This document shows positions 2,078 through 50,350 of a stretch of 64,000 bases of DNA, piece after piece (the stretch's first letter is position 1; each line of letters opens with the position of its first letter). The stretch is from a virus, in IMG/VR virus record IMGVR_UViG_3300032224_000970, positions 64,001-128,000 of that record; one strand, written 5' to 3'. Position numbers and translations under genes: made by a program. The notes below the pieces were generated by a model. The model made no database searches and had not been told where the DNA came from. It was given only the letters and a program-made list of their open reading frames with translations.

Positions 2078-2734
2078 ATGAGACTAATCAGAGAAGTTAA
2101 CGAATCTACTCAGTTTATTGTTGAGAAAGATCTCAGCGGTAAAGGTAAGAACTATTTTATTGAAGGTGTATTCCTTCAATCAGAATTACAAAATCGTAAT
2201 GGTCGCATGTATCCAGAAAAAGTTATGGATAAAGAAGTTGCTCGTTACATGAAAGAGAATGTAGATAATAATCGTGCATACGGAGAGTTGGGTCATCCTG
2301 ATACTCCATCGATTAATCTAGATCGTGTGTCCCACATGATTACCTCTTTGAAAAAAGAAGGTACAAACTATGTAGGTCGTGCAAAGATTTTAGAAACTCC
2401 AATGGGTATGATTGCTCGTGGTCTTTTAGATGGTGGAGCGAATCTTGGAGTTTCTAGTAGAGCACTTGGATCACTGAAGTCTAACAACGAAGGTGTTCAA
2501 ATTGTTCAAGACGATTTTATGCTGTCCACTGCAGCTGACATCGTTGCCGACCCTTCTGCCCCTGATGCTTACGTACGTGGTATTATGGAGGGCAAAGAGT
2601 GGGTTTTCGTTGATGGAAAGTTTGTGGAAAGACATATTGAAGAAGCAAAATCTTTTATTAGAAAGACTTCTTCACGTAACTTAGAAGAAGCGAAGGTTCT
2701 CGCTTTTCAAAGATTTCTGAGTAAAATCAGATAA
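2078..2734 (+). CDS. gp21: prohead protease gp21
   Basis: NRNGRMYP, AYGELGHP, LGVSSRALGS and ADIVADPSAPDA motifs. Confidence 0.97.
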   Translation: MRLIREVNESTQFIVEKDLSGKGKNYFIEGVFLQSELQNRNGRMYPEKVMDKEVARYMKENVDNNRAYGELGHPDTPSINLDRVSHMITSLKKEGTNYVGRAKILETPMGMIARGLLDGGANLGVSSRALGSLKSNNEGVQIVQDDFMLSTAADIVADPSAPDAYVRGIMEGKEWVFVDGKFVERHIEEAKSFIRKTSSRNLEEAKVLAFQRFLSKIR

Positions 2735-2774: not shown

Positions 2775-3809
2775 ATGTCAATCGAACAAAAAATCGCTGA
2801 AATGCTTGCCGAGTCTCGTGCGAAAGAATTAGACGAAGCTAAATTTGCTGGTGCCGAAGGTGGTCAAGATTCTGGTAAAGATGGTGCACAGGCTGGAGAT
2901 AAAACTCCAATCCGTAGTTCATCAAACAATGTTCCAGCATCTAACCCAGAAGCAAATCCAGCTAACGCAAAGAATAACGTCCAAGATGAAGATGAAGCTG
3001 CAAATGCTACATCGAAGAAAGGAAACCCTGCTACTGCTTCCTCTGCAGCTGGAGATCAAACTCCAATTCGCAAAGGTGATGCTGTAAAAGGTGTTAAAGA
3101 AGATATTGATGCACTTATGAATGGCGAAGAACTTTCTGAGGAATTCCGTCAGAAAGCTACTACTATTTTTGAAGCTGCAGTAATGACACGTGTTAATGAA
3201 GAATTAGCACGTATCGAAGAAGAATTCGATTCCAGATTGCAAGAGGCAATCGAAAAGAATAAAGAGGGTCTTGTTGAACAGGTTGATGGATATCTCGACT
3301 ACGTTGTCGAGCAGTGGATTGCACAGAATGAACTTGCCCTTGAGCGTGGTATGAAGTCTGAAATTGTTGAAGGTTTCATCAGTGGTTTGAAAGGTCTCTT
3401 CCAAGAGCACTATATCGATATTCCTGAAGAGAAATTCGATGTACTTGGTGCACTAGAAGAACAAGTCGCTACTCTTGAAGAGAAACTAAACGAACAAGTC
3501 GCTGTTAACGTCGAGATGAATAAAACACTTGGCGCACTAAAGCGTTCTGAAATCGTTTCTGAGATTAGCGAAGGTCTAGCTGACACTGAAGTTGAAAAAC
3601 TAAAAGGTCTAGCAGAAGAACTTTCATACGAAGATGAAGAATCTTTCAAAGTTAAAGTTCAAACTATTCGTGAGAACTACTTCACTACTAAAGCACAAGC
3701 AGATATTAAATCTGTTGTAACTGATGCTCCTGTTGACCAATTGACTGAAGAGGTAAAACTCGATCCAGCGATGGCTGCATACACTAGCATCCTTAACCGC
3801 AACAAATAA
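2775..3809 (+). CDS. gp22: prohead core scaffold protein gp22
   Basis: ELSEEFRQKATTIFEAAV, VDGYLDYVVEQW and FISGLKGLFQEHYIDIPEEK motifs; between gp21 and gp23. Confidence 0.95.
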   Translation: MSIEQKIAEMLAESRAKELDEAKFAGAEGGQDSGKDGAQAGDKTPIRSSSNNVPASNPEANPANAKNNVQDEDEAANATSKKGNPATASSAAGDQTPIRKGDAVKGVKEDIDALMNGEELSEEFRQKATTIFEAAVMTRVNEELARIEEEFDSRLQEAIEKNKEGLVEQVDGYLDYVVEQWIAQNELALERGMKSEIVEGFISGLKGLFQEHYIDIPEEKFDVLGALEEQVATLEEKLNEQVAVNVEMNKTLGALKRSEIVSEISEGLADTEVEKLKGLAEELSYEDEESFKVKVQTIRENYFTTKAQADIKSVVTDAPVDQLTEEVKLDPAMAAYTSILNRNK

Positions 3810-3824
3810 TTAAAAGGAAATAAA

Positions 3825-5117
3825 ATGACAATTCGTCAAGATCTAGTTAAAAAATGGGCACCTGTGCTTGAGCACGAAGGCGCAGCCCCAATCAAAGATC
3901 AGTATCGTAAAGAAGTTACTGCTGTTCTTTTGGAAAACCAAGAACGTGAAATGCGCAAGCAAACTGAAGCTCTTTTCGAAGCTGCTCCAGCTAACGCTGT
4001 TGGTTCTTATGGCGACACTGGCGGTTTCGCTAAGTTTGATCCAGTATTGATCAGCTTGGTTCGCCGTGCAATGCCACAACTTATTGCGTATGACATCGCT
4101 GGCGTTCAGCCAATGACTCAGCCTACTGGCTTAATCTTCGCAATGAAGTCACGTTATTCAACACAAGGTGGTACTGAAGCATTGTTCAACGAAGCTGACT
4201 CTGCATTCTCAGGTACTGGTACTCAAACAACTCCATTTGACTTCGGTGGTTCAGAGACTACTGGTACTGGTGTTACTACTGCTGCAGGTGAGCGTCTTGG
4301 TCAAGGTGGCGTGGGTGATGGTTCTTTCGGTGCTATGGCTTTCTCAATCGAGAAAACTAGCGTAACTGCTAAGACTCGTGCTCTAAAGGCTGAGTACTCA
4401 ATCGAATTGGCACAAGACATGAAGTCTGTTCATGGTCTTGACGCTGAAGGCGAATTGAGCAACATCCTTTCAACAGAGATCCTTGCTGAGATCAATCGTG
4501 AAGTTGTTCGTACTGTATATGCAACTGCTAAGGCAGGTGCTGCTGTTGGTACTACTACTGCTGGTACTTTTGACCTAGACACTGACTCTAATGGTCGTTG
4601 GTCTGTTGAGAAATTCAAAGGTCTATTGTTCCAAATCGAACGTGAAGCCAATGCGATTGGTCAACAAACTCGTCGTGGTCGTGGTAACTTCATCATCACT
4701 TCAGCTGACGTTGCGTCTGCTCTAGCGATGGCTGGTGTTCTTGACTATGCTCCAGCATTGTCAACTAGCCTAAATGTTGATGATACTTCTACTACTTTCG
4801 CAGGTGTTCTAAATGGTAAGTACAAAGTGTATGTTGACCCATATACTTCAAACGTAAGCGCAACTCAGTATTTTGTTTGCGGATACAAAGGTACTTCAGC
4901 ATTTGACGCTGGTCTATTCTACTGCCCATACGTTCCACTACAATTGGTTCGTGCAGTTGATCCTAACAGCTTCCAACCAAAGATTGGTTTCAAGACTCGT
5001 TACGGTCTAGTTGCTAACCCATTCGTTAACTTGGACGATGGTACTAGCGGTGAGGATAACCTAACTGTTAATGCAAACTACTACTACCGTCGTGTTAAGG
5101 TTACTAACCTAATGTAA
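3825..5117 (+). CDS. gp23: major capsid protein gp23
   Basis: FDPVLISLVRRAMPQLIAYDIAGVQPM, RALKAEYSIELAQD and FQPKIGFKTRYG motifs. Confidence 0.99.
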   Translation: MTIRQDLVKKWAPVLEHEGAAPIKDQYRKEVTAVLLENQEREMRKQTEALFEAAPANAVGSYGDTGGFAKFDPVLISLVRRAMPQLIAYDIAGVQPMTQPTGLIFAMKSRYSTQGGTEALFNEADSAFSGTGTQTTPFDFGGSETTGTGVTTAAGERLGQGGVGDGSFGAMAFSIEKTSVTAKTRALKAEYSIELAQDMKSVHGLDAEGELSNILSTEILAEINREVVRTVYATAKAGAAVGTTTAGTFDLDTDSNGRWSVEKFKGLLFQIEREANAIGQQTRRGRGNFIITSADVASALAMAGVLDYAPALSTSLNVDDTSTTFAGVLNGKYKVYVDPYTSNVSATQYFVCGYKGTSAFDAGLFYCPYVPLQLVRAVDPNSFQPKIGFKTRYGLVANPFVNLDDGTSGEDNLTVNANYYYRRVKVTNLM

Positions 5118-21824: not shown

Positions 21825-22013
21825 ATGATTAAACTTGAATTGAGTGTAGATGACGTAAATATGATTCTTCGTACTTTAGGGAAACATCCCTTTGAAGAGG
21901 TTGTTAGACTTATCGAAAATATTAAATCACAGGGAGATCCTCAGGTTGAGGTTCTTGTGAAAAAGATGCAAGAAGAACAGGCAGCTGCACAAGCTGAGTT
22001 GCCACAAGTATAA
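21825..22013 (+). CDS. small hypothetical protein
   Basis: 62-aa ORF with RBS AGGA. Confidence 0.6.
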   Translation: MIKLELSVDDVNMILRTLGKHPFEEVVRLIENIKSQGDPQVEVLVKKMQEEQAAAQAELPQV

Positions 22014-39853: not shown

Positions 39854-39944
39854 CCCTACTGGCAGTAGGGTTTTGCAATAAAGTGCTTTACTTTAATTGC
39901 AAAATAGGGTATAATAGGTGTGTAGTTAGGGGGAAACCTAAATA
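39854..39944 (+). promoter_or_regulatory. early promoter cassette copy 4 (CCCTAC-N5-GTAGGG, TTTACT-17-TATAAT) followed by late promoter CTAAATA
   Basis: Palindrome at 39854-39870, -35 at 39887, -10 at 39910, late box at 39938-39944. Confidence 0.7.
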
Positions 39945-39969: not shown

Positions 39970-41208
39970 ATGAAGTCGTTTAAGGGTTATTTACTCGAAG
40001 CCAAAGATGCCCAAGGGCATGGCTCCGATAGCGAAGGTGATAAGTTAAAGCATATTCACCATGCCGAAGATCGTCCATTGATGCATGGTCACGAAGGTTT
40101 TGAACATGCACATGGTGCGTTGAGCCAAGCCCATGAACATATGAAGGCTGGTCAAAAGAATTCAAACCTGACAATGAAGTATGATGGATCGCCATCAGTT
40201 GTGTTTGGTCATCATCCAAAGTCTGGTAAATTTTTCGTTGCTTCAAAATCCGCATTCAATAAAGATCCAAAATTAAATTATAGTCAAGCTGACATTCAAA
40301 AGAATCATGGTCATGCTCCAGGACTTGTTCAGAAACTTGGTGCTGCTCTACAACATCTTCCAAAAGTTGCTCCAAAGAAAGGTGTTTATCAAGGTGACTT
40401 GATGCACTCGCATGATGATGTAAAGCATGATAAGAAAACAGGTAAGGCTACCTTTACACCAAACACTATTACGTATACTGCTTCTGGTGATGAAGCAAAG
40501 AAACGTGCTCAATCTAAAGTAGGTGTTGTTGTTCATCAGAAATACGAGCATGGTAAAGATAATGAGTTGCACAATATGCATGCTACTCCGCATCCTGATA
40601 CTCACAACTTCGGTTCACATAGTGATGTTCATTTGCAATCAGCTGAGCATGACACCAGCAAGGTAAAGTATTCTGATAAAGATCAGAAAGAATTTCATGG
40701 TCATATGAAAGCTGCACAAGATATTCACAGTAAGCATGGTTCAAAAATGTATGGTGCTATTCATCCTACGCATGCTGGTGAAGGTGGTCATCTTGGCACT
40801 TACATTAACTCAACTGTTCGCACTGGTGAAACGCCATCTGCAAAAGGTTTCCAACAGCATATGACTGGTCAATTTGAGAAAGGTGCACAGAAGTTGAAGT
40901 CTGAAGCAGGTCAGACTAAGAAACGTGCTGAAGGTGCTTCGCATGTTGCACATATTGAAAAGAATAAACAACACTATGAGAATCTACTAAAGATGCATGG
41001 TCATCTAGGTAAAGCAAAGGATACATTAGTTCGCAATTTGAATCAGCATTCAGGTGGACTTGAACATCATATCGATAACAATAAAACAGATCCAGAAGGT
41101 TTCGTTATTAACCATACTCGCAATGGTAAGACTGAACCAACTAAACTTGTAAATCGTGCAGAGTTTAGTAAAGCGAATCTGTTAAAAGTAAAGGCATGGA
41201 AGAAATGA
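39970..41208 (+). CDS. His-rich DUF6267-like protein with ligase-type nucleotidyltransferase motifs; probable internal head protein
   Basis: MKSFKGYLLE leader; KYDGSP, FFVASKSAFN, YQGDLM, PEGFVI and TKLVNRAEFS. Confidence 0.7.
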   Translation: MKSFKGYLLEAKDAQGHGSDSEGDKLKHIHHAEDRPLMHGHEGFEHAHGALSQAHEHMKAGQKNSNLTMKYDGSPSVVFGHHPKSGKFFVASKSAFNKDPKLNYSQADIQKNHGHAPGLVQKLGAALQHLPKVAPKKGVYQGDLMHSHDDVKHDKKTGKATFTPNTITYTASGDEAKKRAQSKVGVVVHQKYEHGKDNELHNMHATPHPDTHNFGSHSDVHLQSAEHDTSKVKYSDKDQKEFHGHMKAAQDIHSKHGSKMYGAIHPTHAGEGGHLGTYINSTVRTGETPSAKGFQQHMTGQFEKGAQKLKSEAGQTKKRAEGASHVAHIEKNKQHYENLLKMHGHLGKAKDTLVRNLNQHSGGLEHHIDNNKTDPEGFVINHTRNGKTEPTKLVNRAEFSKANLLKVKAWKK

Positions 41209-41870
41209 TATCATTCAAAGATTATATAAAAGAAGGTAAGCGTGGCTTGTGGGATAACATTCACGCTAAGAGAGAAAGAATTAAAAATGGTTCAGGTGAG
41301 CGTATGCGTAAACCTGGAAGCAAAGGTGCTCCCACTGCTGCTGACTTTAAAGCATCTCAAGAATCTTTTGAACAAACATTAAGTATGTTAGAAGAAGCAG
41401 CAAAAGCAATTGATAGTGGTGAGTATGATTACGAAGGTCAAATGGCTCGCACTCAACTTCAAACTATCTTGCGCAATTCCAAAGATTTAATTGATATGTT
41501 ATCTGATGAAGATAACATGCCAGAGTGGGTTCAGTCAAAGATTACCTTGGCTCAAGACTATATTACTTGCGTAAGAGATTATCTTCAGTCTAAAGAAGAA
41601 CTTGGTGAAGCAGCTACTGCAGATGCAAAAGGTTACAAGAGTGCTACTGGTGGTTTGACGCAGAAGGGTCGTGATCACTACAACAACACAGAAGGTGGAA
41701 ACCTTAAAGCACCAGTTACTACACCACCAAGCAAACTAAAGGCTGGTAGTAAAGCTGCTAATCGTCGTAAGTCTTTCTGTGCCAGAATGTCTGGTGTAGA
41801 TGGTCCAATGGAGAAACCAAATGGCGAGCCAACAAGAAAGGCACTCGCACTAAGAAAGTGGAACTGCTAA
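41205..41870 (+). CDS. three-module probable internal head protein (C-terminal DUF6321-like)
   Basis: MISFKDYIKE leader; GLWDNIHAKR, PEWVQSKITLA and GGLTQKGR...RRKSFCARM modules. Confidence 0.65.
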   Translation: MISFKDYIKEGKRGLWDNIHAKRERIKNGSGERMRKPGSKGAPTAADFKASQESFEQTLSMLEEAAKAIDSGEYDYEGQMARTQLQTILRNSKDLIDMLSDEDNMPEWVQSKITLAQDYITCVRDYLQSKEELGEAATADAKGYKSATGGLTQKGRDHYNNTEGGNLKAPVTTPPSKLKAGSKAANRRKSFCARMSGVDGPMEKPNGEPTRKALALRKWNC

Positions 41871-42502
41871 TGAAATCATTTACCACGTTTATAAAAGAAG
41901 CTAAAGATGCCCAAGGGCATGGCTCAGAGAAGCATGGAGTAATGGCATTTGGACGTATGAATCCTCCAACTGCAGGACATGAACAAGTTGTTAACAAGAT
42001 GCATGAGGTTGCCAAGAAACATGGTGCAGATCACAATCTAGTTCTATCTGGCTCACATGATGCAAAGAAAAATCCACTGTCTCCAGAATCAAAAGTAAAG
42101 CATGCAAAGAATGCTTTCCCAGGAACTAATATCTCCTCTGCTAAAAAAGGAGAAACACCACTACATGCTGCTGCTAAAATGCATGCCTCAGGTGTTCAAC
42201 ATTTACACGTAGTTGCTGGTTCAGATCGTCAAAAATCAACACATGATCTACTTCACAAATATAACAATGTGAAGTCTGCGCATGGTCACTATAACTTCAA
42301 ATCCATTACTGTTCATTCATCTGGTGATCGTGATCCAGATTCAGATGAGGGAACTGCTGGTGTCTCTGGTACTAAGATGCGTGAACATGCTTCAACTGGT
42401 AACAAGAAAGACTTCCATAAAAACTTACCATCGAAAATGAAGCCAGAGCATAGGGATGCTTTGTATCATGACCTACGTAGTTCTATGGGACATAAAGATT
42501 AA
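41870..42502 (+). CDS. His-rich cytidyltransferase-like (HxGH-family) nucleotidyltransferase
   Basis: FGRMNPPTAGH, KNPLS, VVAGSDR, GDRDPD and SGTKMR. Confidence 0.85.
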   Translation: MKSFTTFIKEAKDAQGHGSEKHGVMAFGRMNPPTAGHEQVVNKMHEVAKKHGADHNLVLSGSHDAKKNPLSPESKVKHAKNAFPGTNISSAKKGETPLHAAAKMHASGVQHLHVVAGSDRQKSTHDLLHKYNNVKSAHGHYNFKSITVHSSGDRDPDSDEGTAGVSGTKMREHASTGNKKDFHKNLPSKMKPEHRDALYHDLRSSMGHKD

Positions 42503-43305
42503 TGAGCGAACTAAGTGACTTCCTTAAACTTATTGCAGAGGGTAAGAAAACAGATCCAGTTGCAGTAAAGGCGAAAGAACAACGAGAGTATATACAAGAA
42601 GTTGTTAAGGAAGATCTCGGATCATTGTTTAGTCAATTAGCGACACTTAAGAACAAACAAAAAGAAGTACAGGTTCAAGCACCAATCGTTGAAGAGGTGT
42701 TGATAGAAAGAATCTATACAGAACCACCAACTGAACCTATTCCCGCTGCACAGGTTCACTCTACTTCTGAGATCGATAAGTATCTCACTACAAAATCTTT
42801 TCAACAACCAAACCCAGATAAAGTTTCTCCAGAGTTAAAGGCACTTACTGAGAAAGTTAAATTCTTAGAGCAAGCAATCGGACGTATTGCTGCAACTGGT
42901 CCAGGATCTGGTGAAGTAAACCTTCGTTGGTTAGATGATGTAAAGCGTGACACTATCTCAGATGGTCGTTGGTTAAAGTATGATGATTCTCTTAAAAAAT
43001 TCGTATTCGATGAAATCAATCCTTACGAAGTAGTATATAATACAACTCATGTTACAACTCCAACCTATACTGTTCAGGATAATGACTTTTATATTGGAGT
43101 CGACTACGCTGGTCCAGTAACCATAAATCTACCAGTATCTGCAAATTCTGGTCGTATGTTGATCATCAAAGATGAAGATGGCGACGCAGAAACAAACCCT
43201 ATTACTGTCCTCGGCACTGTTGATAATGATGCTGGTGGATTCATAATTCAAATTGATAATGGAGCTATTCAATTGCTCTACAGAAATGGCTGGAGAATAG
43301 TATGA
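42502..43305 (+). CDS. putative virion structural protein
   Basis: GSGEVNLRWLDDV motif and a beta-rich C-terminus (YIGVDYAGPVTINLP...GRMLIIKDE). Confidence 0.55.
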   Translation: MSELSDFLKLIAEGKKTDPVAVKAKEQREYIQEVVKEDLGSLFSQLATLKNKQKEVQVQAPIVEEVLIERIYTEPPTEPIPAAQVHSTSEIDKYLTTKSFQQPNPDKVSPELKALTEKVKFLEQAIGRIAATGPGSGEVNLRWLDDVKRDTISDGRWLKYDDSLKKFVFDEINPYEVVYNTTHVTTPTYTVQDNDFYIGVDYAGPVTINLPVSANSGRMLIIKDEDGDAETNPITVLGTVDNDAGGFIIQIDNGAIQLLYRNGWRIV

Positions 43306-43913
43306 CATATTTGTTTACAAACAATCAAGAAGTTAAAAATGATATCGGTAATCCAATACCAGTTAGTGGTAATGTAAATGCTACAATCACTGATGTCATT
43401 ACAGTAATTGCTGAAGAACCAGCTGGTAGTCTATACTCATTTAATAATCATGCTACCAATGCTAGTCGTGGTTGGACATTGGACAACACAATGCGTCCTG
43501 TAGTTAGTTTTCAAAATGGTAGTTCCAGTGCTACAGACTTTATTGAAATTCTAGAATACGAAATAGGCAACAACAATGCTAATCAAAGTACTATTGTTTA
43601 TGAGTGGTATGAAGGTCCATTGACCATTGCAGGCGCAGCTATACCTTCTTGGACCACGTTTGGTGTACACAGTCAATATCGTGTTTATCAAGATGTATAC
43701 TCTAGTAATCAAGGTAACACCTTTACTGTTCCTGGTGGCACATACATGAGACATAGTGGCATTATTATTGGGAAAAACACTAGTGGGGATGAAGGTCCAG
43801 CTAGTATGTATGGTGGAGGAAGTCGAAATATGCTTACTCTTTGTATGAAACGAGTTGACAATGCTACCAAACTAGATGTGTGGTTTGCATTTACAATTAA
43901 AGAGCTAACATAA
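43302..43913 (+). CDS. hypothetical, probably structural, protein
   Basis: NQEVKNDIGNPIPVS; beta-rich. Confidence 0.5.
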   Translation: MTYLFTNNQEVKNDIGNPIPVSGNVNATITDVITVIAEEPAGSLYSFNNHATNASRGWTLDNTMRPVVSFQNGSSSATDFIEILEYEIGNNNANQSTIVYEWYEGPLTIAGAAIPSWTTFGVHSQYRVYQDVYSSNQGNTFTVPGGTYMRHSGIIIGKNTSGDEGPASMYGGGSRNMLTLCMKRVDNATKLDVWFAFTIKELT

Positions 43914-43965
43914 AATATAAAATGACTAAATAATAGGCTGGATTTTAATTTTATAGATGGGTCAT

Positions 43966-46158
43966 ATGAAGAACTACAGAGAACTAATAAAAGAGTTACC
44001 GTCAAATCGATTAGTCTGCACCTTTGGTGAGTTTCAACCACCCACAGCTGCTCACGAATTTCAGGTTAAGGCAGTTAAGAAACTTGCAGAAGAGTATCGT
44101 TCTGACTACCTAGTTCTAGTAACTTCATCATTAAAAGAAGATTATCTCCCAGCTGACAAAAAGGTTCAGTATATGAACCTGATGTTCCCAGTAACGAATA
44201 TCAAGATTACTGAAGGAACCATAGAACAATCCCTAAGAGAACTAAGCAGAAAATATAAAAACTTAGTTCTTGTCATCTCCGAAGATCTTACTGAGCACTA
44301 TCAGAAGATTGTCAAAAAAGCAAATCTCCCCTCTATTGAAATAATCTCCGCTGGCGATACAGACCCAGACTCGAACAAACTATGCGAGTCAGCCAAGAAA
44401 GGTGATTACACCAAATTCAAGAAGGGTTTACCTTCCAGCCTAAGAGAACTAGACAGTCGTCGCCTGATGAATGACCTTCGTCAGAACATGGGACTGGATA
44501 TGGTTAGAGAAGAAATTAAGTTTACAGTTGATGATGTTAGAGATAAGTATTTCAAAGGTGAGATATATCATATCGGAGAGATCGTTGAATCAGATGACAG
44601 CGTATATCAAATTATCAAACGTGGATCAAATCACTTACTATTGCAATCAGAAGATGGTTCCAAGGTTAGTAAGTGGATACAAGACGTTAAAACTTCTACG
44701 AGAGAATTTATGTTAAAAGAAGGCGTAATGCAACCAACAGGAACTGACCAAGTTATTCCCGCACCTACTGCTCCTGCAGTAAATGCGAATGGAGTTAAGT
44801 ATAAAGACTTCAAGAAAAAACTTGCAGGTAAAACACCAATGCCAGAGATCGATTTAGATGATCTTGATGGTGATGGAGAACACGATCCCGACCATCCTTC
44901 TGCGCAAGATCAGATGGCAGTTGCAGCGCAAACTTCTATCGATAAAGCAGAACCAATCAGAGTAGTTGGTGGTTTAATGCATAGCCCATTAAATGTTACC
45001 GATGATAACCATCGTCGTCGTAAGATCAACTATCATCTTGGCGAAGAAACTATTGATGAAGTATCTTCAGAATTACTTGATCGTTACAAAGAAAAAGCAA
45101 AGAAGTCTGCAGATGACTTAGCCAGCAAAGGACAATACAAGAAGTCTACCAATCGCTGGATGGGTGTAATGAAAGCAACTGGTAAGCAGATTGAAAAGAC
45201 AACTGCTAATATTAAAACCAGTTTGAATAAAGAAGAAACTGAACAGCTTGATGAAGTTAAATATGATAAAGAACATGTTCGTGATCATATTAGCACTATG
45301 CATCCAACAGTATTCAAGAAACTGTATGGTAAGTCTAAAGAAGAGATGAAACAAACTATCACTTCCGAAGAAAAGAATTATGAAGAAGAACCAACTAACC
45401 CAAATATCAAACTTCGTTCAGGTGCATTGAAGCATCATGAGAAGGGTGTTAAGTTAGATACTGAAGAGGGTTGGGAAGATCATAAAATGAAAGATCAGAA
45501 ACAACCAGTATGGGGAACAGGTACTAAACCTAAAGAACCATTAAAGGGTGTTGATAAAGTAAATGCTGCAGGACAAGAACCACACCCAGAAGAGTGGGAA
45601 GACTATAAAAAGAAACCTGTTAAAGAAGCACAAGAACAAAACTTTACAGATCAACAGGTAGAGCTGGATGATCTAAACGATGAAGAAATCAATCGTATGG
45701 TTGACTCTATCAAAGATGAGAACGATGTTATGGATGCATATGATGATGCCGAGTTCGGTATTGTTGATGACGAAAGTGGCGAAGAGATTCCTGAGGAAGA
45801 TAAAGCTGTCAAAGAAGAAACACTTAACGAAGTACTATCTCGTGCAGAGCGTATGCGTGCAAGAGTTCGTTTTGCAAAGAGTAGAGCCAAACGTGAACGT
45901 AGTGTAAAGTTGGCTTTGAAGAGATCTTCCAGCACACAAACTATTAACAAACGTGCACGTCGTCTTGCAATCGGTTTAATGAAACAGCGTCTACTACGTG
46001 GTAGAAATCCTTCTACTCTATCAGTTGGAGAGAAGGAACGTATTGAATCACAGATCGCAAAACGTAAAACTATTATTAATCGAATCGCCATGAAGTTGGC
46101 TCCAAGAGTTCGCCAGATTGAGAAGGCACGTCTTTCTCATAAGAAATATACACAATAA
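43966..46158 (+). CDS. multi-module protein: degenerate cytidyltransferase domain, linker-separated modules and an Arg-rich C-terminal domain
   Basis: FGEFQPPTAAH; EETIDE/V, KEETEQLDE/V and KEETLNE/V linkers; late promoter at 43926. Confidence 0.7.
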   Translation: MKNYRELIKELPSNRLVCTFGEFQPPTAAHEFQVKAVKKLAEEYRSDYLVLVTSSLKEDYLPADKKVQYMNLMFPVTNIKITEGTIEQSLRELSRKYKNLVLVISEDLTEHYQKIVKKANLPSIEIISAGDTDPDSNKLCESAKKGDYTKFKKGLPSSLRELDSRRLMNDLRQNMGLDMVREEIKFTVDDVRDKYFKGEIYHIGEIVESDDSVYQIIKRGSNHLLLQSEDGSKVSKWIQDVKTSTREFMLKEGVMQPTGTDQVIPAPTAPAVNANGVKYKDFKKKLAGKTPMPEIDLDDLDGDGEHDPDHPSAQDQMAVAAQTSIDKAEPIRVVGGLMHSPLNVTDDNHRRRKINYHLGEETIDEVSSELLDRYKEKAKKSADDLASKGQYKKSTNRWMGVMKATGKQIEKTTANIKTSLNKEETEQLDEVKYDKEHVRDHISTMHPTVFKKLYGKSKEEMKQTITSEEKNYEEEPTNPNIKLRSGALKHHEKGVKLDTEEGWEDHKMKDQKQPVWGTGTKPKEPLKGVDKVNAAGQEPHPEEWEDYKKKPVKEAQEQNFTDQQVELDDLNDEEINRMVDSIKDENDVMDAYDDAEFGIVDDESGEEIPEEDKAVKEETLNEVLSRAERMRARVRFAKSRAKRERSVKLALKRSSSTQTINKRARRLAIGLMKQRLLRGRNPSTLSVGEKERIESQIAKRKTIINRIAMKLAPRVRQIEKARLSHKKYTQ

Positions 46159-46173
46159 GAGTAGAGGGTTAAT

Positions 46174-46620
46174 ATGAATGAATTAGTAGCAGCAATGAGA
46201 ATCGTACTGGCGAATAATTTCGTCATGTACTTCAGAGCGCATTCCTACCACTGGAACGTAGAAGGTATTGAGTTTAGCCAATATCATGACTTCTTTGGAG
46301 ATCTATACAACGAACTTTTTGGTGCTGCAGATACAATAGCAGAAGAGATTCGTGCCCTAGATTCTTATGCTCCAATTAGCCTTATGGAAATGTATAACTA
46401 TAAGACTATCGAAGAGGATAGTACCAGAACTGTCCTAATCGCTGATATGTTGACCAAACTACAAGATTCTAACAATAAAGTTCTCGAAAGCCTAAATAAA
46501 GCATATGAGTTAGCAAATTCCGCAAAGGAATTGGGTCTCGCAAACTTTCTCCAGGATAGAATGGATAAACATAAGAAACATGGTTGGATGATTCGTGCCA
46601 GCCTAAAGAAGGTTGGATAA
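46174..46620 (+). CDS. dps: Dps / ferritin-like DNA protection protein
   Basis: AHSYHWNVEG..F...HDFF, DTIAEEIRAL and HKKHGWMIRA. Confidence 0.93.
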   Translation: MNELVAAMRIVLANNFVMYFRAHSYHWNVEGIEFSQYHDFFGDLYNELFGAADTIAEEIRALDSYAPISLMEMYNYKTIEEDSTRTVLIADMLTKLQDSNNKVLESLNKAYELANSAKELGLANFLQDRMDKHKKHGWMIRASLKKVG

Positions 46621-46621
46621 T

Positions 46622-49063
46622 ATGAATTTTAAACAATTTACTGCAAAACTTAATGAATCCGCTACGGAGTTGGACAAACATATATCTGATTTTTCTAAAG
46701 GTGTTAAGTCCTCAGCTGCAAAACACTCTACATACAAAAGTGGTGGTGGTAAGATTCATAACATGAAGCATGTTGAAACTGACTCTGATCATCAGAAAGT
46801 ATTTGACCATCTAAAGAAGATGGGTTATAAAAAGACTTCTGGATATGATCCAAAGCCAAATCAGTTTGATATGCATCACAATCGTGATTCAATGACTTCA
46901 AAGAGCGATCCTGTTCACCATTCATCTGGTGTTTCTGCTCATATTGAACAAGAACATGGTGGTAAAATGAAAGTCCACTTTACTCATCGTCATATGAAAG
47001 AAGAAGTAGAGTTAGACGAAGCAACTACTGGTGCTACTAAGTTGGTGCATACAAGAAAAGGTGCTGATGGTGCCAAGTATCACATTATGCAAGACTCTCC
47101 TACCGATTATTCTGTTCATAGAGAACATAAAGGTAAGACTACTCATATCGATACTTACAGTTCTTTACATAGAGCAAAGTCTGTTCTAGATAACGAAGTT
47201 AAAGAAGAAGTAGAGTTAGACGAAGCCACTGTTAATACTAAAAAGTATTCATGGGGAACTATGAAGACTGTGCATCATGGCGCTGACTTCTCAATTCCTT
47301 TACATCCTGAACATCACCAAGCTATCGCTAAGTTAAAAGATGAACAGGAACATCACTTCAAAGATGAAACAGGTCGTCATTGGACTGCTCGTCGTAAGGG
47401 TGAAGATGTTCATTTCCAAGGTGCTAATGGTGGTAGTTCTACTAAAGTCCCACATTCAACTATGTCCGAAGAAGTTGAATTGGATGAAGATATTTCTAAA
47501 ATGTCAACTGACAAGTTGAAAAAACATTGGGATACTCATAAAGATCAAACTGGTGCATCACCTGTTTTCGCAGCCCAACTTAAAAAAGTTGCTAAAGAGT
47601 TGGCGAAACGTAAAGCATTAAACAAAGAAGAAACAGAATTAGATGAGGTATTAAATCCATCTATGGGTGCTGGCGAATACATCAAAGATTTTCAAAAATC
47701 TGATGCACCTCAATTTAAAGGTAAATCAAAGGAGAAAAAACGTATGATGGGAATTGCCGCATACCTACAAGCCAAACGTGATATGAAAGAACAAGCACCT
47801 GTTGCTCCAACTATTGATAGAAAATATATCAAGGGAACTCCAGAGAACAAAGCGCATAAAGAAAAGAACAAACCGATCAATGGTCATCCAACCAATAAGA
47901 TGAAAGAAGAAGTTGAAATGGATGAAGCATTTATCAATGGTCGTGAGTATGCATCACATGGTTTAATGCACCCTGATCATGCTAAGATGGATATTCATCA
48001 GCCAGCTAATCGAGAAGTTGACTTCTATGCTAGTAAAACTGGCAACAAGATGTCTGGTAAAGTTATGAAGAATGATGGTAAACAAGTCCACATTCAAGCA
48101 CATAAGGAACTGGGAGATGGTAAATTGCATAAATTTAAAGTAACGCCACACTTACCAAAATCAACTAATGAAGAAGTTGATTATATTGAAGAACTGAATA
48201 GTTCTGATATTGCTAAAATCCATAGCGACGCAGCAGCGCATCATGCAGCTACCCTTGCAAAGAAACCTGAGCAAAAACCAAAAAGCATGTTGGACAAAGT
48301 TAAAGATACTTGGGCAAAAGCAGACCCAAAGAAATATAAGAAGTATTACGCCAACGAAGAAACTAAGAAGCAAGATGCTCCATTTGATGGACCATATAAA
48401 AAGACTCCAGGTTCTACTACCGACAAGTCTGGTGCTGTTCATACACCAATGTCACGTGCAAGACATCTAGCACGTATGGCTATGCAAAAGAAAATGAAAG
48501 AAGAGTTTGACGTAGAGATCGATGACGCATTAGCAGATTCATTGGTTGAAACTGTTCTTGATGAAAACATCTGGTTGGATGAAAATCTTGTTGGTGGTCA
48601 AAAGAAACTTGACAAAAACAACAATGGTAAACTAGATGCTGAAGATTTCAAGAAACTACGCAAAGAAGAAAAAGAATGTCCTGACTGCCACAAGCCAATG
48701 AGTAAGTGCGAGTGCAGTATGAATGAGTCAATTGACTTTGATGATGAAGGTAATTTGGTTGTAGAGAAAATTTCTTACTCCAACTTCATCAGAAATCTTC
48801 AAGAAATTAAACTATCCGATCTTCCAGTTCGTAAAGTAACTGGTCGTGCTTATGGCGGTGGCGCACAGAAAGATGCACCTGAGCATGATGAGGATGATGA
48901 CAAACCGAAAGCGAAACCAGAACCAGCTGAAAAGCGTGGTCGTGGTAGACCTGTTGGTTCTAAATCTGGCGCCAATCAAAAGGTAACGAGCGGAACTAAA
49001 CGCAGCGGTGTTGACTACACTGGTTACAAATTACATCTGCCAAACACAAATAAATCTTATTAA
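46622..49063 (+). CDS. modular polyprotein with repeated EEVELDE-type linkers; probable internal head protein precursor
   Basis: MNFKQFTAKLNE leader and about 10 acidic linkers separating His/Lys-rich modules. Confidence 0.7.
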   Translation: MNFKQFTAKLNESATELDKHISDFSKGVKSSAAKHSTYKSGGGKIHNMKHVETDSDHQKVFDHLKKMGYKKTSGYDPKPNQFDMHHNRDSMTSKSDPVHHSSGVSAHIEQEHGGKMKVHFTHRHMKEEVELDEATTGATKLVHTRKGADGAKYHIMQDSPTDYSVHREHKGKTTHIDTYSSLHRAKSVLDNEVKEEVELDEATVNTKKYSWGTMKTVHHGADFSIPLHPEHHQAIAKLKDEQEHHFKDETGRHWTARRKGEDVHFQGANGGSSTKVPHSTMSEEVELDEDISKMSTDKLKKHWDTHKDQTGASPVFAAQLKKVAKELAKRKALNKEETELDEVLNPSMGAGEYIKDFQKSDAPQFKGKSKEKKRMMGIAAYLQAKRDMKEQAPVAPTIDRKYIKGTPENKAHKEKNKPINGHPTNKMKEEVEMDEAFINGREYASHGLMHPDHAKMDIHQPANREVDFYASKTGNKMSGKVMKNDGKQVHIQAHKELGDGKLHKFKVTPHLPKSTNEEVDYIEELNSSDIAKIHSDAAAHHAATLAKKPEQKPKSMLDKVKDTWAKADPKKYKKYYANEETKKQDAPFDGPYKKTPGSTTDKSGAVHTPMSRARHLARMAMQKKMKEEFDVEIDDALADSLVETVLDENIWLDENLVGGQKKLDKNNNGKLDAEDFKKLRKEEKECPDCHKPMSKCECSMNESIDFDDEGNLVVEKISYSNFIRNLQEIKLSDLPVRKVTGRAYGGGAQKDAPEHDEDDDKPKAKPEPAEKRGRGRPVGSKSGANQKVTSGTKRSGVDYTGYKLHLPNTNKSY
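46997..47226 (+). repeat. 26-bp perfect direct repeat encoding the KEEVELDEA linker
   Basis: aaagaagaagtagagttagacgaagc at 46997-47022 and 47201-47226. Confidence 0.9.
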
Positions 49064-49075
49064 GGAGAAACAAAA

Positions 49076-50350
49076 ATGGCATTATGGGGAAACAAAGATA
49101 GTAAGACTGCTTCTGGTACTGTAAGCATCGCATCAACTGGTGTCGTTACTGGGTCTAGCACTTCATTTCTATCTCAAGCAAGAATCGGTGATATTCTAAC
49201 AGCGAATAGCGTTGAATATCAAATCGTAACTATTACTAGCAATACTGTTGCTAAAGTAATTATGGGACGCAACAATGGTAATGGATCAGTTACTACTTGT
49301 TCTGCTCAATCCTATACTCTATCTGAAAAACCAACATTCGTTCCACACGAATCACGTTCTTCAAGCAGCGACTCTGGTGATTCAGCAGTAGTATATGGTG
49401 TTGACGCTACTGAAGCAACTGCTGGTGGCGATAACGTCTCTGCAGTTTCTGTTGGTACTATCGCTGGTACTCGTTACCTTGGTACTGCTCCAGCAGTAAC
49501 ATTCTCTGGTGGTGGTGGTTCTTCTGCTGCAGCTACTGCAACTATCTCTGGTGGTGCAGTTACAGCAATTACTGTTACTAACACTGGTACTTCTTATACT
49601 TCAGCACCAACTGTTACTGTTGCTAAACCTGCTCGTATTATTCCTACTTCTGGTATCACTATTGGTACTGATACTGTTGCTTACACTGCACACGGCTTAG
49701 TTGCTGGTGAAGCAGTTAAGTATAACAATGGTGGATCTACTACAGCTACTGGTTTAACTTCTGGTACAACTTACTATGTGGCTACTGCTGGTTTGACTGC
49801 TAACGCATTCGAAGTTAAAGCAGCAACAACTACTGGTACTCTTGCAGCTACTGTTGCTACTTCTGGTACTGCTGGTCAATTTACTTGCGGTGCTTCTACT
49901 CTTGCTGCTTCTGATCGTGTTACTATCACTGGTACAAATACTGGTACAGGTACTATCACTGGTTATGCATCTGGTACAACTTATAAAGTTTCTGCAGTTA
50001 CTGGTACTTCACCAAGCGTAACTGGTTTCACTTTAACAACTGAGGCTGGTTCTGCTTTAACTACTACTGCTGGTACTTTGGTTGGTTTGACTTATACAAC
50101 TGAAACAGTTATCGATATCTCTGGTACTGGTAACAATGCTCAGTACTTTGAAATCCAAGCTGCAGCTGATCAAGCAATCGCTACTGCTGCACTAGGTGAT
50201 GGTGCTGTTGGTGGTTCACAGCATGCTGGTTGGGTTCGTCGTACTGTTGGTACTGGTGGTCGTGCTGGTCGTGTTCAGTATGAAACTTTAGTTGCCATGG
50301 GTTCAATCACTGGTGACGCAGCTGACGATATCGCTTTCAAAGATAGTTAA
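49076..50350 (+). CDS. Thr/Gly/Ala-rich virion structural (fibre-like) protein
   Basis: MALWGNKD start and HAGWVRR...GRVQYETLVAM end, typical of T4-like virion proteins. Confidence 0.7.
   Translation: MALWGNKDSKTASGTVSIASTGVVTGSSTSFLSQARIGDILTANSVEYQIVTITSNTVAKVIMGRNNGNGSVTTCSAQSYTLSEKPTFVPHESRSSSSDSGDSAVVYGVDATEATAGGDNVSAVSVGTIAGTRYLGTAPAVTFSGGGGSSAAATATISGGAVTAITVTNTGTSYTSAPTVTVAKPARIIPTSGITIGTDTVAYTAHGLVAGEAVKYNNGGSTTATGLTSGTTYYVATAGLTANAFEVKAATTTGTLAATVATSGTAGQFTCGASTLAASDRVTITGTNTGTGTITGYASGTTYKVSAVTGTSPSVTGFTLTTEAGSALTTTAGTLVGLTYTTETVIDISGTGNNAQYFEIQAAADQAIATAALGDGAVGGSQHAGWVRRTVGTGGRAGRVQYETLVAMGSITGDAADDIAFKDS

Follow-up and report, generated by a model that had tools for sequence, protein, structure and literature searches.

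A probable capsid-cargo polyprotein with repeated gp21-type joints in a T4-like phage

The 813-residue protein encoded at 46622-49063 in a 64,000-nucleotide stretch of viral DNA (the window, bases 64001-128000 of IMG/VR virus record IMGVR_UViG_3300032224_000970) is probably a capsid-cargo polyprotein, i.e., a precursor that is packaged into the head and cut at its linkers. By this the T4 internal-protein system, with one cargo per targeting tag, would, as we judge rather likely, be extended to about a dozen cargoes per tag. What carries the reading is directly observed: a linker motif in strict register, shuffling of modules at the joints, interchangeability of leader and linker, a mini-domain structure, a gene cluster and its conserved synteny. 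A first-pass annotation of the window had proposed a prohead-cargo polyprotein, cut into small proteins that take part in host takeover or anti-defence. The shuffling and the gp21-type register speak for the cargo part of this proposal, while the effector part found no counterpart, in that no module matches a known effector family in Pfam or PHROG. The annotation had missed two supporting points, namely the N-terminal leader, which resembles a T4 capsid targeting sequence (CTS), and the presence of five leader-bearing genes in one cluster.

The source record is 159,683 bp long, has direct terminal repeats and is rated 100 % complete. It belongs to an uncultured, aquatic T4-like myovirus, in which Pfam and PHROG scans find a gp21-type protease, a gp22-type scaffold and gp23. 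All coordinates given here refer to the window, and all features lie on its plus strand. The target ORF is a stop-free translation, the ATG of which stands one base beyond the stop of the Dps/ferritin-like gene that precedes it; an in-frame TTG at 46613, upstream of this ATG, is an alternative start that would give 816 residues. The protein is rich in His (6.3 %) and Lys (14.3 %), in agreement with the description of its modules as His/Lys-rich.

The sequence is divided by six near-identical acidic linkers of the type K-E-E-V-E-L-D-E and by shorter x-x-E joints. With the slash marking the proposed cut, the linkers are MKEEVELDE/A (linker 1, residues 125-133, 46994..47020), VKEEVELDE/A (linker 2, residues 193-201, 47198..47224), MSEEVELDE/D (linker 3, residues 281-289, 47462..47488), NKEETELDE/V (linker 4, residues 334-342, 47621..47647), MKEEVEMDE/A (linker 5, residues 427-435, 47900..47926) and TNEEVDYIEE/L (linker 6, residues 515-524, 48164..48193). 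These linkers, and the short MKE, ANE and MNE joints, are all located within 46622-49063 where the annotation had placed them. The pattern EE[VTIL][EDQ][LMIYF][DNI]E occurs in six copies in the protein; when the protein is shuffled 20,000 times, the maximum is one copy, and at least one copy appears in 7 shuffles. When the entire genome of 159,683 bp is scanned in six frames, the pattern is found nowhere outside the target ORF. At the DNA level, linkers 1 and 2 share an identical stretch of 26 nt, and the remaining linkers differ at synonymous sites. It follows that the peptide is what is conserved, and not a recent DNA duplication, which suggests that selection acts on the linker peptide.

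For mapping, the target was split at the linkers into 12 modules (B-M). To see how the joints are built, consider module H (residues 436-514, 47927..48163), which together with its flanking linkers was aligned to 75 relatives (alignment A1), giving 57 distinct upstream contexts. The P1 position before module H is Glu in all 57 contexts, and P3 is aliphatic in all 57 (L 35, I 13, M 6, V 3), while the P1' residue of the module is Ala in 45. Asp is never found at P1, though at P2 it is more frequent than any other residue. For T4 gp21 the published specificity is L/I-x-E, first seen as a Glu-Ala bond, and Asp at P1 blocks processing (PMC9026906). As read from the aligned residues, the register of the joint before module H matches this rule. 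The same upstream picture is obtained for modules D, K and F; for module D, [LIVMF]-x-E stands immediately upstream of the module start in 112 of 117 upstream contexts.

The register is not confined to internal positions. In six relatives module H comes directly behind an N-terminal leader (MKSFLEFQRIDE/, MKSFVEFQKLDE/, MKSFREVIQSIQE/), and the register is then that of the internal linker. Similarly, module K follows the cut in MEFKSFME/ALKG at N-termini and in SVDE/ELKG internally. Since leader and linker have the same register in front of the same modules, they are, on the evidence of these comparisons, functionally interchangeable, and the feature they share is a gp21-type site.

The second line of evidence is the behaviour of the modules in relatives. 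A word-indexed search gave at least 1,086 relatives of 447-1,423 residues, and an exhaustive HMMER search of aquatic-metagenome proteins gave, with proteins clustered at 50 % identity, 2,786 clusters that match at E <= 1e-3; for 193 of them E is 1e-30 or lower. Relatives typically match the target in 2-7 separate stretches. Among the 120 relatives in which the modules were mapped there are 65 module orders, e.g., KJGDHM, KDHJGL, DGKHJFLM and BDKGJHL. The ends of the high-scoring segment pairs pile up at residues 126-135, 191-201, 281-290, 336-351, 386-391, 426-440, 511-520, 576, 641-656 and 681-702, and these breakpoints coincide with the linkers and with the short MKE, ANE and MNE joints. When the distinct strings between adjacent mapped modules are collected, [LIVMFY]-x-E is present in 110 of 150. 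One and the same module pair may be connected by a long joint, NKMKEETELDE/KLNP, or by a short one, NKVQE/VLSP, so that the constant part is x-x-E. Complete shorter relatives of 250-440 residues, encoded on contigs of 130-180 kb, contain two to five of the target's modules. By these counts the linker joints are points of module swap, loss and reordering between phages, and the fixed, non-shuffled architecture that the annotation had named as contrary evidence is not seen.

Among cultured phages, a tblastn search of 50,697 phage records returned five cyanophage records only, covering 4-13 % of the query, with module F matched in P-TIM68, SynMITS9220M01 and Sf-CH8, and blastn of the region gave nothing useful. 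A separate observation concerns the ends of the genes (P0089 and P0062): some relatives start at a linker Met (MKEETM-TQSFKGFLTSLTE...), and others hold the same string internally (NKMKEETMPQSFKGFLTSLTE), at G-K junctions. From such pairs it appears that genes are joined or separated precisely at the linkers, and that CTS-like peptides also occur at internal positions.

Independent mini-domains joined by disordered linkers had been anticipated, and the structure predictions agree with this. Single-sequence AlphaFold finds no global fold for the whole target (pTM 0.24), but gives a pLDDT of 86-92 for residues 141-190 of module C and of 80-87 for residues 223-270 of module D, with linkers below 50. 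Module H, when predicted with alignment A1, consists of short helices and a four-stranded sheet (core pLDDT 85-91, pTM 0.60), again with flanking linkers below 50.

The third line of evidence is the N-terminal leader, MNFKQFTAKLNE/S (46622..46657). It has 12 residues, with F3, F6 and L10-N-E12, so that it ends in L-x-E, and by pattern match it fits the T4 CTS. The T4 sequence is MKTYQEFIAE (PMC8442874), where positions 4 and 7 carry targeting and positions 8 and 10 cleavage (PMC9026906). The leaders of relatives are of the same kind (MNFKEFTEKLNE, MDYKKFMDKLTE, MKTYAKLSEELGE, MKSFKELISGLEE, MKSFLEFQRIDE and similar). A CTS-like leader is present in only five of the 209 ORFs of the genome, and all five lie within 39970-49063, a 9-kb cluster that includes four leader-bearing ORFs upstream (39970..46158) and the target itself at 46622.

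The proposed processing enzyme is the gp21-type prohead serine protease at 2078..2734, which Pfam and PHROG bear out as a Peptidase_S77 homolog (PF03420, E 3.6e-39; PHROG E 4.7e-76). Its expected substrates, the gp22 scaffold and the gp23 major capsid protein (2775..5117), carry the same type of motif, as the annotation had said, with KELDE/A near the gp22 N-terminus and ALFE/A at gp23 residue 52. The scaffold (2775-3809) matches T4_CASP with E 4.8e-71. The gp23 profile match has E 4.5e-141. The protein has an identity of about 64 % with the gp23 of Pelagibacter phage HTVC008M, and of 62-63 % with the gp23 proteins of Methylophilales phage Melnitz and several cyanophages.

A link to virions passes through the cyanophages. 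In CsCl-purified virions of S-CREM2, the cytidylyltransferase gp154 and the hypothetical proteins gp155, gp156 and gp160 were detected by mass spectrometry (PMC10665884). Gp154 starts with MKNFSSFLTE/A. Two relatives of the target (P0049, P0060) have a cytidylyltransferase domain fused to B/D/K/G/J/H modules, and gp154 aligns with this domain at 33 % identity (E 3e-19). Gp160 shares two modules, in reversed order, with a 1006-residue protein of Prochlorococcus phage P-TIM68 (E 2e-22 and 6e-13). This protein follows the cytidylyltransferase in P-TIM68, and it has module F in common with the target, together with the linkers on either side (pairwise E 3e-12). These homologies support virion association of the wider system and are not proof for the target protein itself.

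On this basis the following course of events can be proposed. The target would be transcribed late, together with upstream genes that bear like leaders. Its 12-residue leader, with aromatics three apart and an L-N-E end, would dock the precursor on the gp22 scaffolding core, as the CTS does in T4. After closure of the shell, the gp21-type serine protease would cut after Glu at every exposed [L/I/M/V]-x-E joint, which would remove the leader and small acidic peptides of the EVELDE type and release about 11 proteins that are small (4-13 kDa) and mostly basic (core pI 9-10). The released proteins would remain associated with the DNA and exit the capsid together with it when the phage infects. Between phages, the joints would at the same time be the places of module exchange, loss and rearrangement, which would make the locus combinatorial.

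Several findings weigh against this proposal. L/I-x-E is a short motif, and many such sites are left uncut by T4 gp21. Some joints have no aliphatic P3, e.g., Q-Q-N-E/Q and A-N-E/E. Avoidance of [LIMV]-x-E inside the target's module cores (2 observed vs 4.7 expected, P = 0.12) is a trend only, and the corresponding deficit in the module H cores of the whole family (24 vs 38 expected) comes from sequences that are not independent. Among the relatives no free-standing gene with a single module was found, the shortest complete ones having about 250-300 residues. For none of the modules could homology be detected, either to the T4 proteins IPI, IPII, IPIII and Alt or to known effector families. 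The virion link passes through two homology steps and through different modules. Upstream of the gene there is no copy of the canonical T4 late promoter, TATAAATA, which occurs once in the 64-kb window, at 22009.

If instead the leader alone were removed, as in the T4 internal proteins, the mature product would be packaged but whole: a beads-on-a-string internal or DNA-binding protein, in which the acidic linkers are flexible spacers. That many L-x-E sites in T4 proteins stay uncut would fit such a product, and so would the C-terminal AT-hook and the basic modules, which could act jointly on DNA. The T4 internal proteins are, moreover, cut once only, next to the CTS (PMC8442874). A spacer, however, needs no invariant Glu, never replaced by Asp, and no aliphatic P3 or Ala at P1' in a fixed register, nor would it be interchangeable with a cleavable N-terminal leader. 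The linkers are also predicted, with low-confidence structure, to be exposed, and should therefore be accessible to the protease. Taken together, this makes a whole mature protein rather unlikely.

It is likewise improbable that the target is no virion cargo at all but a cytoplasmic modular protein, chromatin-like or regulatory, the joints of which are kept for recombinational shuffling or cut by another protease. The 26 identical nucleotides of linkers 1 and 2 would be expected if the DNA of the joints served recombination, and there is a precedent in the T-even internal-protein loci, where conserved leader-coding DNA is thought to mediate exchange, according to the passage of PMC9026906 that cites Repoila et al. 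1994. The other linkers, in contrast, differ at synonymous sites with the peptide conserved. The motif agrees with the cutting rule of the S77 protease that the phage itself encodes and is met again in the scaffold protein, CTS-like leaders are restricted to the target's gene cluster, and a homolog of the fused partner domain is detected in purified virions.

Very improbable, finally, is that the linkers are repeated scaffold-binding or targeting elements, a multivalent CTS that raises the affinity for the gp22 core, and not cleavage sites: they do resemble the KELDE segment of gp22, and some relatives have internal CTS-like peptides (e.g., MPQSFKGFLTSLTE, KSFREVIQSIQE), but the acidic linkers lack the paired aromatics that the leaders and the T4 CTS possess and that carry targeting in T4 (PMC9026906), and short joints, M-K-E/Q or K-V-Q-E/V, can replace the long linker between the same module pair with x-x-E alone kept.

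The capsid-cargo polyprotein proposed here is best compared with the T4 internal proteins, which are the classic example of proteins injected with phage DNA, IPI being an anti-restriction factor. Anti-defence roles of the modules are plausible by analogy with IPI only. IPI, IPII, IPIII and Alt have an N-terminal leader of about 10-12 residues with spaced aromatics and an L/I-x-E end (PMC9026906, PMC8442874), as the target does. Here, too, the phage encodes gp21, gp22 and gp23, the products are small and basic (in the target, by prediction), and the locus is hypervariable between related phages with conserved leaders. In T4, however, there is one cargo and one cut per leader, whereas the target has about 11 modules with repeated internal sites; its modules are shuffled within and between genes, and comparison with IPI-III and Alt detected no similarity in sequence.

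In concept, the target comes closest to the polyvalent proteins that phages and conjugative elements encode. These contain two to fifteen domains, are predicted to be packaged and delivered with DNA and have been likened to viral polyproteins (Iyer et al. 2017; PMC5512222). They resemble the target, with its 11-12 or so modules and its 65 orders in 120 relatives, in that many unrelated domains are placed on one phage polypeptide with variable architecture. They differ in having recognisable enzymatic or anti-restriction domains and a proposed processing by embedded peptidases such as MPTase, whereas the modules of the target have 40-110 residues, contain no known domains or embedded peptidase, and are combined with sites for a separate head protease and a CTS-like tag.

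In the giant phages phiKZ, 201phi2-1 and SPN3US, a gp21-related protease cuts head-internal proteins after Glu in a three-residue motif, with redundant sites in propeptide regions, but there it is mainly propeptides that are removed from individual proteins (PMC9026906; PMC10052503). A chain of shuffled mini-proteins with one repeated linker was not found described for giant phages in these two sources. A further case is S-CREM2, which has a homologous cytidylyltransferase with the same leader type and, in gp160, small modules with a KKEETEISE/G joint, both of them present in virions; its proteins are, however, short, with one to three modules, none of which occurs in the target, and leaders, linkers and processing are not treated in the publication (PMC10665884). 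In the literature searched, no description was found of CTS-led chains of mini-proteins joined by prohead-protease sites.

If the proposal is correct, abundant aquatic myoviruses, including pelagiphage and cyanophage relatives, carry a much larger and faster-evolving injected proteome than annotated. The family would then be a catalogue of candidate early effectors, with boundaries set precisely by the joints, and it would offer a natural design for loading T4-type capsids with several proteins from a single fusion. The strict P3/P1/P1' rule is also a testable specificity prediction for a marine gp21 homolog. A tentative extension, possible rather than probable, is that the linkers, used doubly as protease site and recombination joint, make plug-and-play cassettes in thousands of aquatic T4-like phages that draw on a shared pool of tiny modules, with each module an independent early effector (in anti-defence, host takeover or DNA protection) and all of them delivered in fixed 1:1 stoichiometry by a single tag.

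The modules themselves are arranged as follows. Module B (residues 13-124, 46658..46993) is His-rich with a core pI of 9.4; it is internal in 18 of the 120 relatives, and in P0167 and P0171 it is fused to the DUF6321 C-terminus. Module C (residues 134-192, 47021..47197), a predicted beta-rich mini-domain, is present in 14 relatives. Module D (residues 202-280, 47225..47461), also His-rich and containing KYSWGTMK, occurs in 90 of the 120 relatives at varied positions. The helical and basic module E (residues 290-333, 47489..47620) is followed, after linker 4, by module F (residues 343-387, 47648..47782), which holds KDFQKSDAPQFKG and is shared with cyanophage proteins. The short joint M-K-E/Q (47783..47791), where homology breakpoints cluster at residues 386-391 and relatives have x-x-E/Q-APVAP, leads to module G (residues 391-426, 47792..47899), found in 106 of the 120 relatives.

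Behind module H and linker 6 come modules I and J (residues 525-639, 48194..48538), with an A-N-E/E joint at 48350-48358, and then the joint SLVETVLDENIWLDE/N (48539..48583), which contains three L/V-x-E sites and includes VLDENIWLDE/N at residues 645-654. Module K (residues 655-702, 48584..48727) has an EF-hand-like loop, DKNNNGKLDAED, that scores 19.5 bits with Pfam EF-hand_1, below the cut-off of 25.4; it also has a Cys cluster, CPDC..KCEC, and ends in M-N-E/S. In many relatives this module is the first, directly after the leader. The C-terminal modules L and M (48728..49060) include the AT-hook-like KRGRGRPVGSK (48932-48964) and the conserved end YTGYKLHLPN, and in most relatives the C-terminal module is conserved and stays terminal. 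After the predicted cuts the cores would have masses of 4-13 kDa, and nine of the eleven would have a pI of 9.1-10.0, the exceptions being module J (4.9) and module K (7.8). The AT-hook and the basic cores suggest that the modules bind DNA or neutralise its charge.

Searches for known domains gave little. Neither the whole protein nor ten separate modules matched a Pfam or PHROG family above threshold (PHROG E <= 0.001), Foldseek found no match of the whole-protein model in the PDB at E <= 0.001, and in the ESM Atlas all matches were to unnamed viral clusters, with scores under 0.8. For module H, the best VIA-align Z score was 5.2, to Tudor/SH3-like small barrels, which is below the tool's meaningful level and serves as a loose description only, and BFVD gave weak matches to uncharacterised phage proteins of about 80 residues. 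Across the 76 sequences of alignment A1, His at fragment positions 30, 39, 70 and 83 is invariant or almost so in module H, as are R21, D47, Y49, G54 and K56, which hints at a metal- or ligand-binding site. An assignment of the target to DUF6321 (PF19846) was considered and rejected: module F aligns to DUF6321-annotated proteins, but hmmscan gives nothing, whether run on the target or on module F by itself. A full-text literature search on DUF6321 and 'cytitidyltransferase' returned no papers.

The only enzyme domain in the polyprotein family is a cytidylyltransferase, which is fused to the target's modules in one protein in some relatives (1,040-1,209 residues) and is present in a neighbouring gene here. 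This gene (43957-46158, likely start 43966) encodes a 733-residue protein with the leader MKNYRELIKE/L, an N-terminal cytidylyltransferase-like domain and an acidic/basic tail with LGEETIDE/V, NKEETEQLDE/V and VKEETLNE/V; it is a candidate second polyprotein, with the enzyme as first cargo. At one related locus (L010:6018-7748) its homolog is split into ORFs of 91 and 475 residues, for which either a genuine gene fission or a fault of the assembly may account. The other leader-bearing genes of the upstream cluster encode a DUF6267 protein (MKSFKGYLLE/A), a DUF6321 protein at 41205-41870 (MISFKDYIKE/G; PF19846, E 1.1e-24) and a short cytidylyltransferase paralog of 210 residues at 41870-42502 (MKSFTTFIKE/A). 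CTAAATA occurs at 39938-39944 and 43926-43932, in each case about 31 nt before a start (39970 and 43957, respectively). We take these motifs to resemble the late promoters of marine T4-like phages, and by this likeness they may be late promoters of two leader-bearing gene blocks.

A search for related loci gave nine loci, and in six related viral contigs the gene order is kept: DUF6267, cytidylyltransferase polyprotein, DUF6321, Dps, variable polyprotein and a protein starting with MALW. In these six syntenic loci the polyprotein varies in length from 497 to 920 residues, and both related contigs of at least 120 kb encode an S77 protease. The Dps/ferritin-like gene (46174-46620; Pfam Ferritin, E 3.4e-23) lies between two leader-bearing polyprotein genes and has no CTS-like leader; its position is kept in all six loci. 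Downstream of the target, at 49076-50350, lies the gene for the MALW protein, which is rich in Gly, Thr and Ala, has 424 residues and starts with MALWGNKDS. Its N-terminus is conserved in the related loci, where its length varies from 89 to 303 residues, and it has weak PHROG matches to head closure Hc2 and to virion structural proteins.

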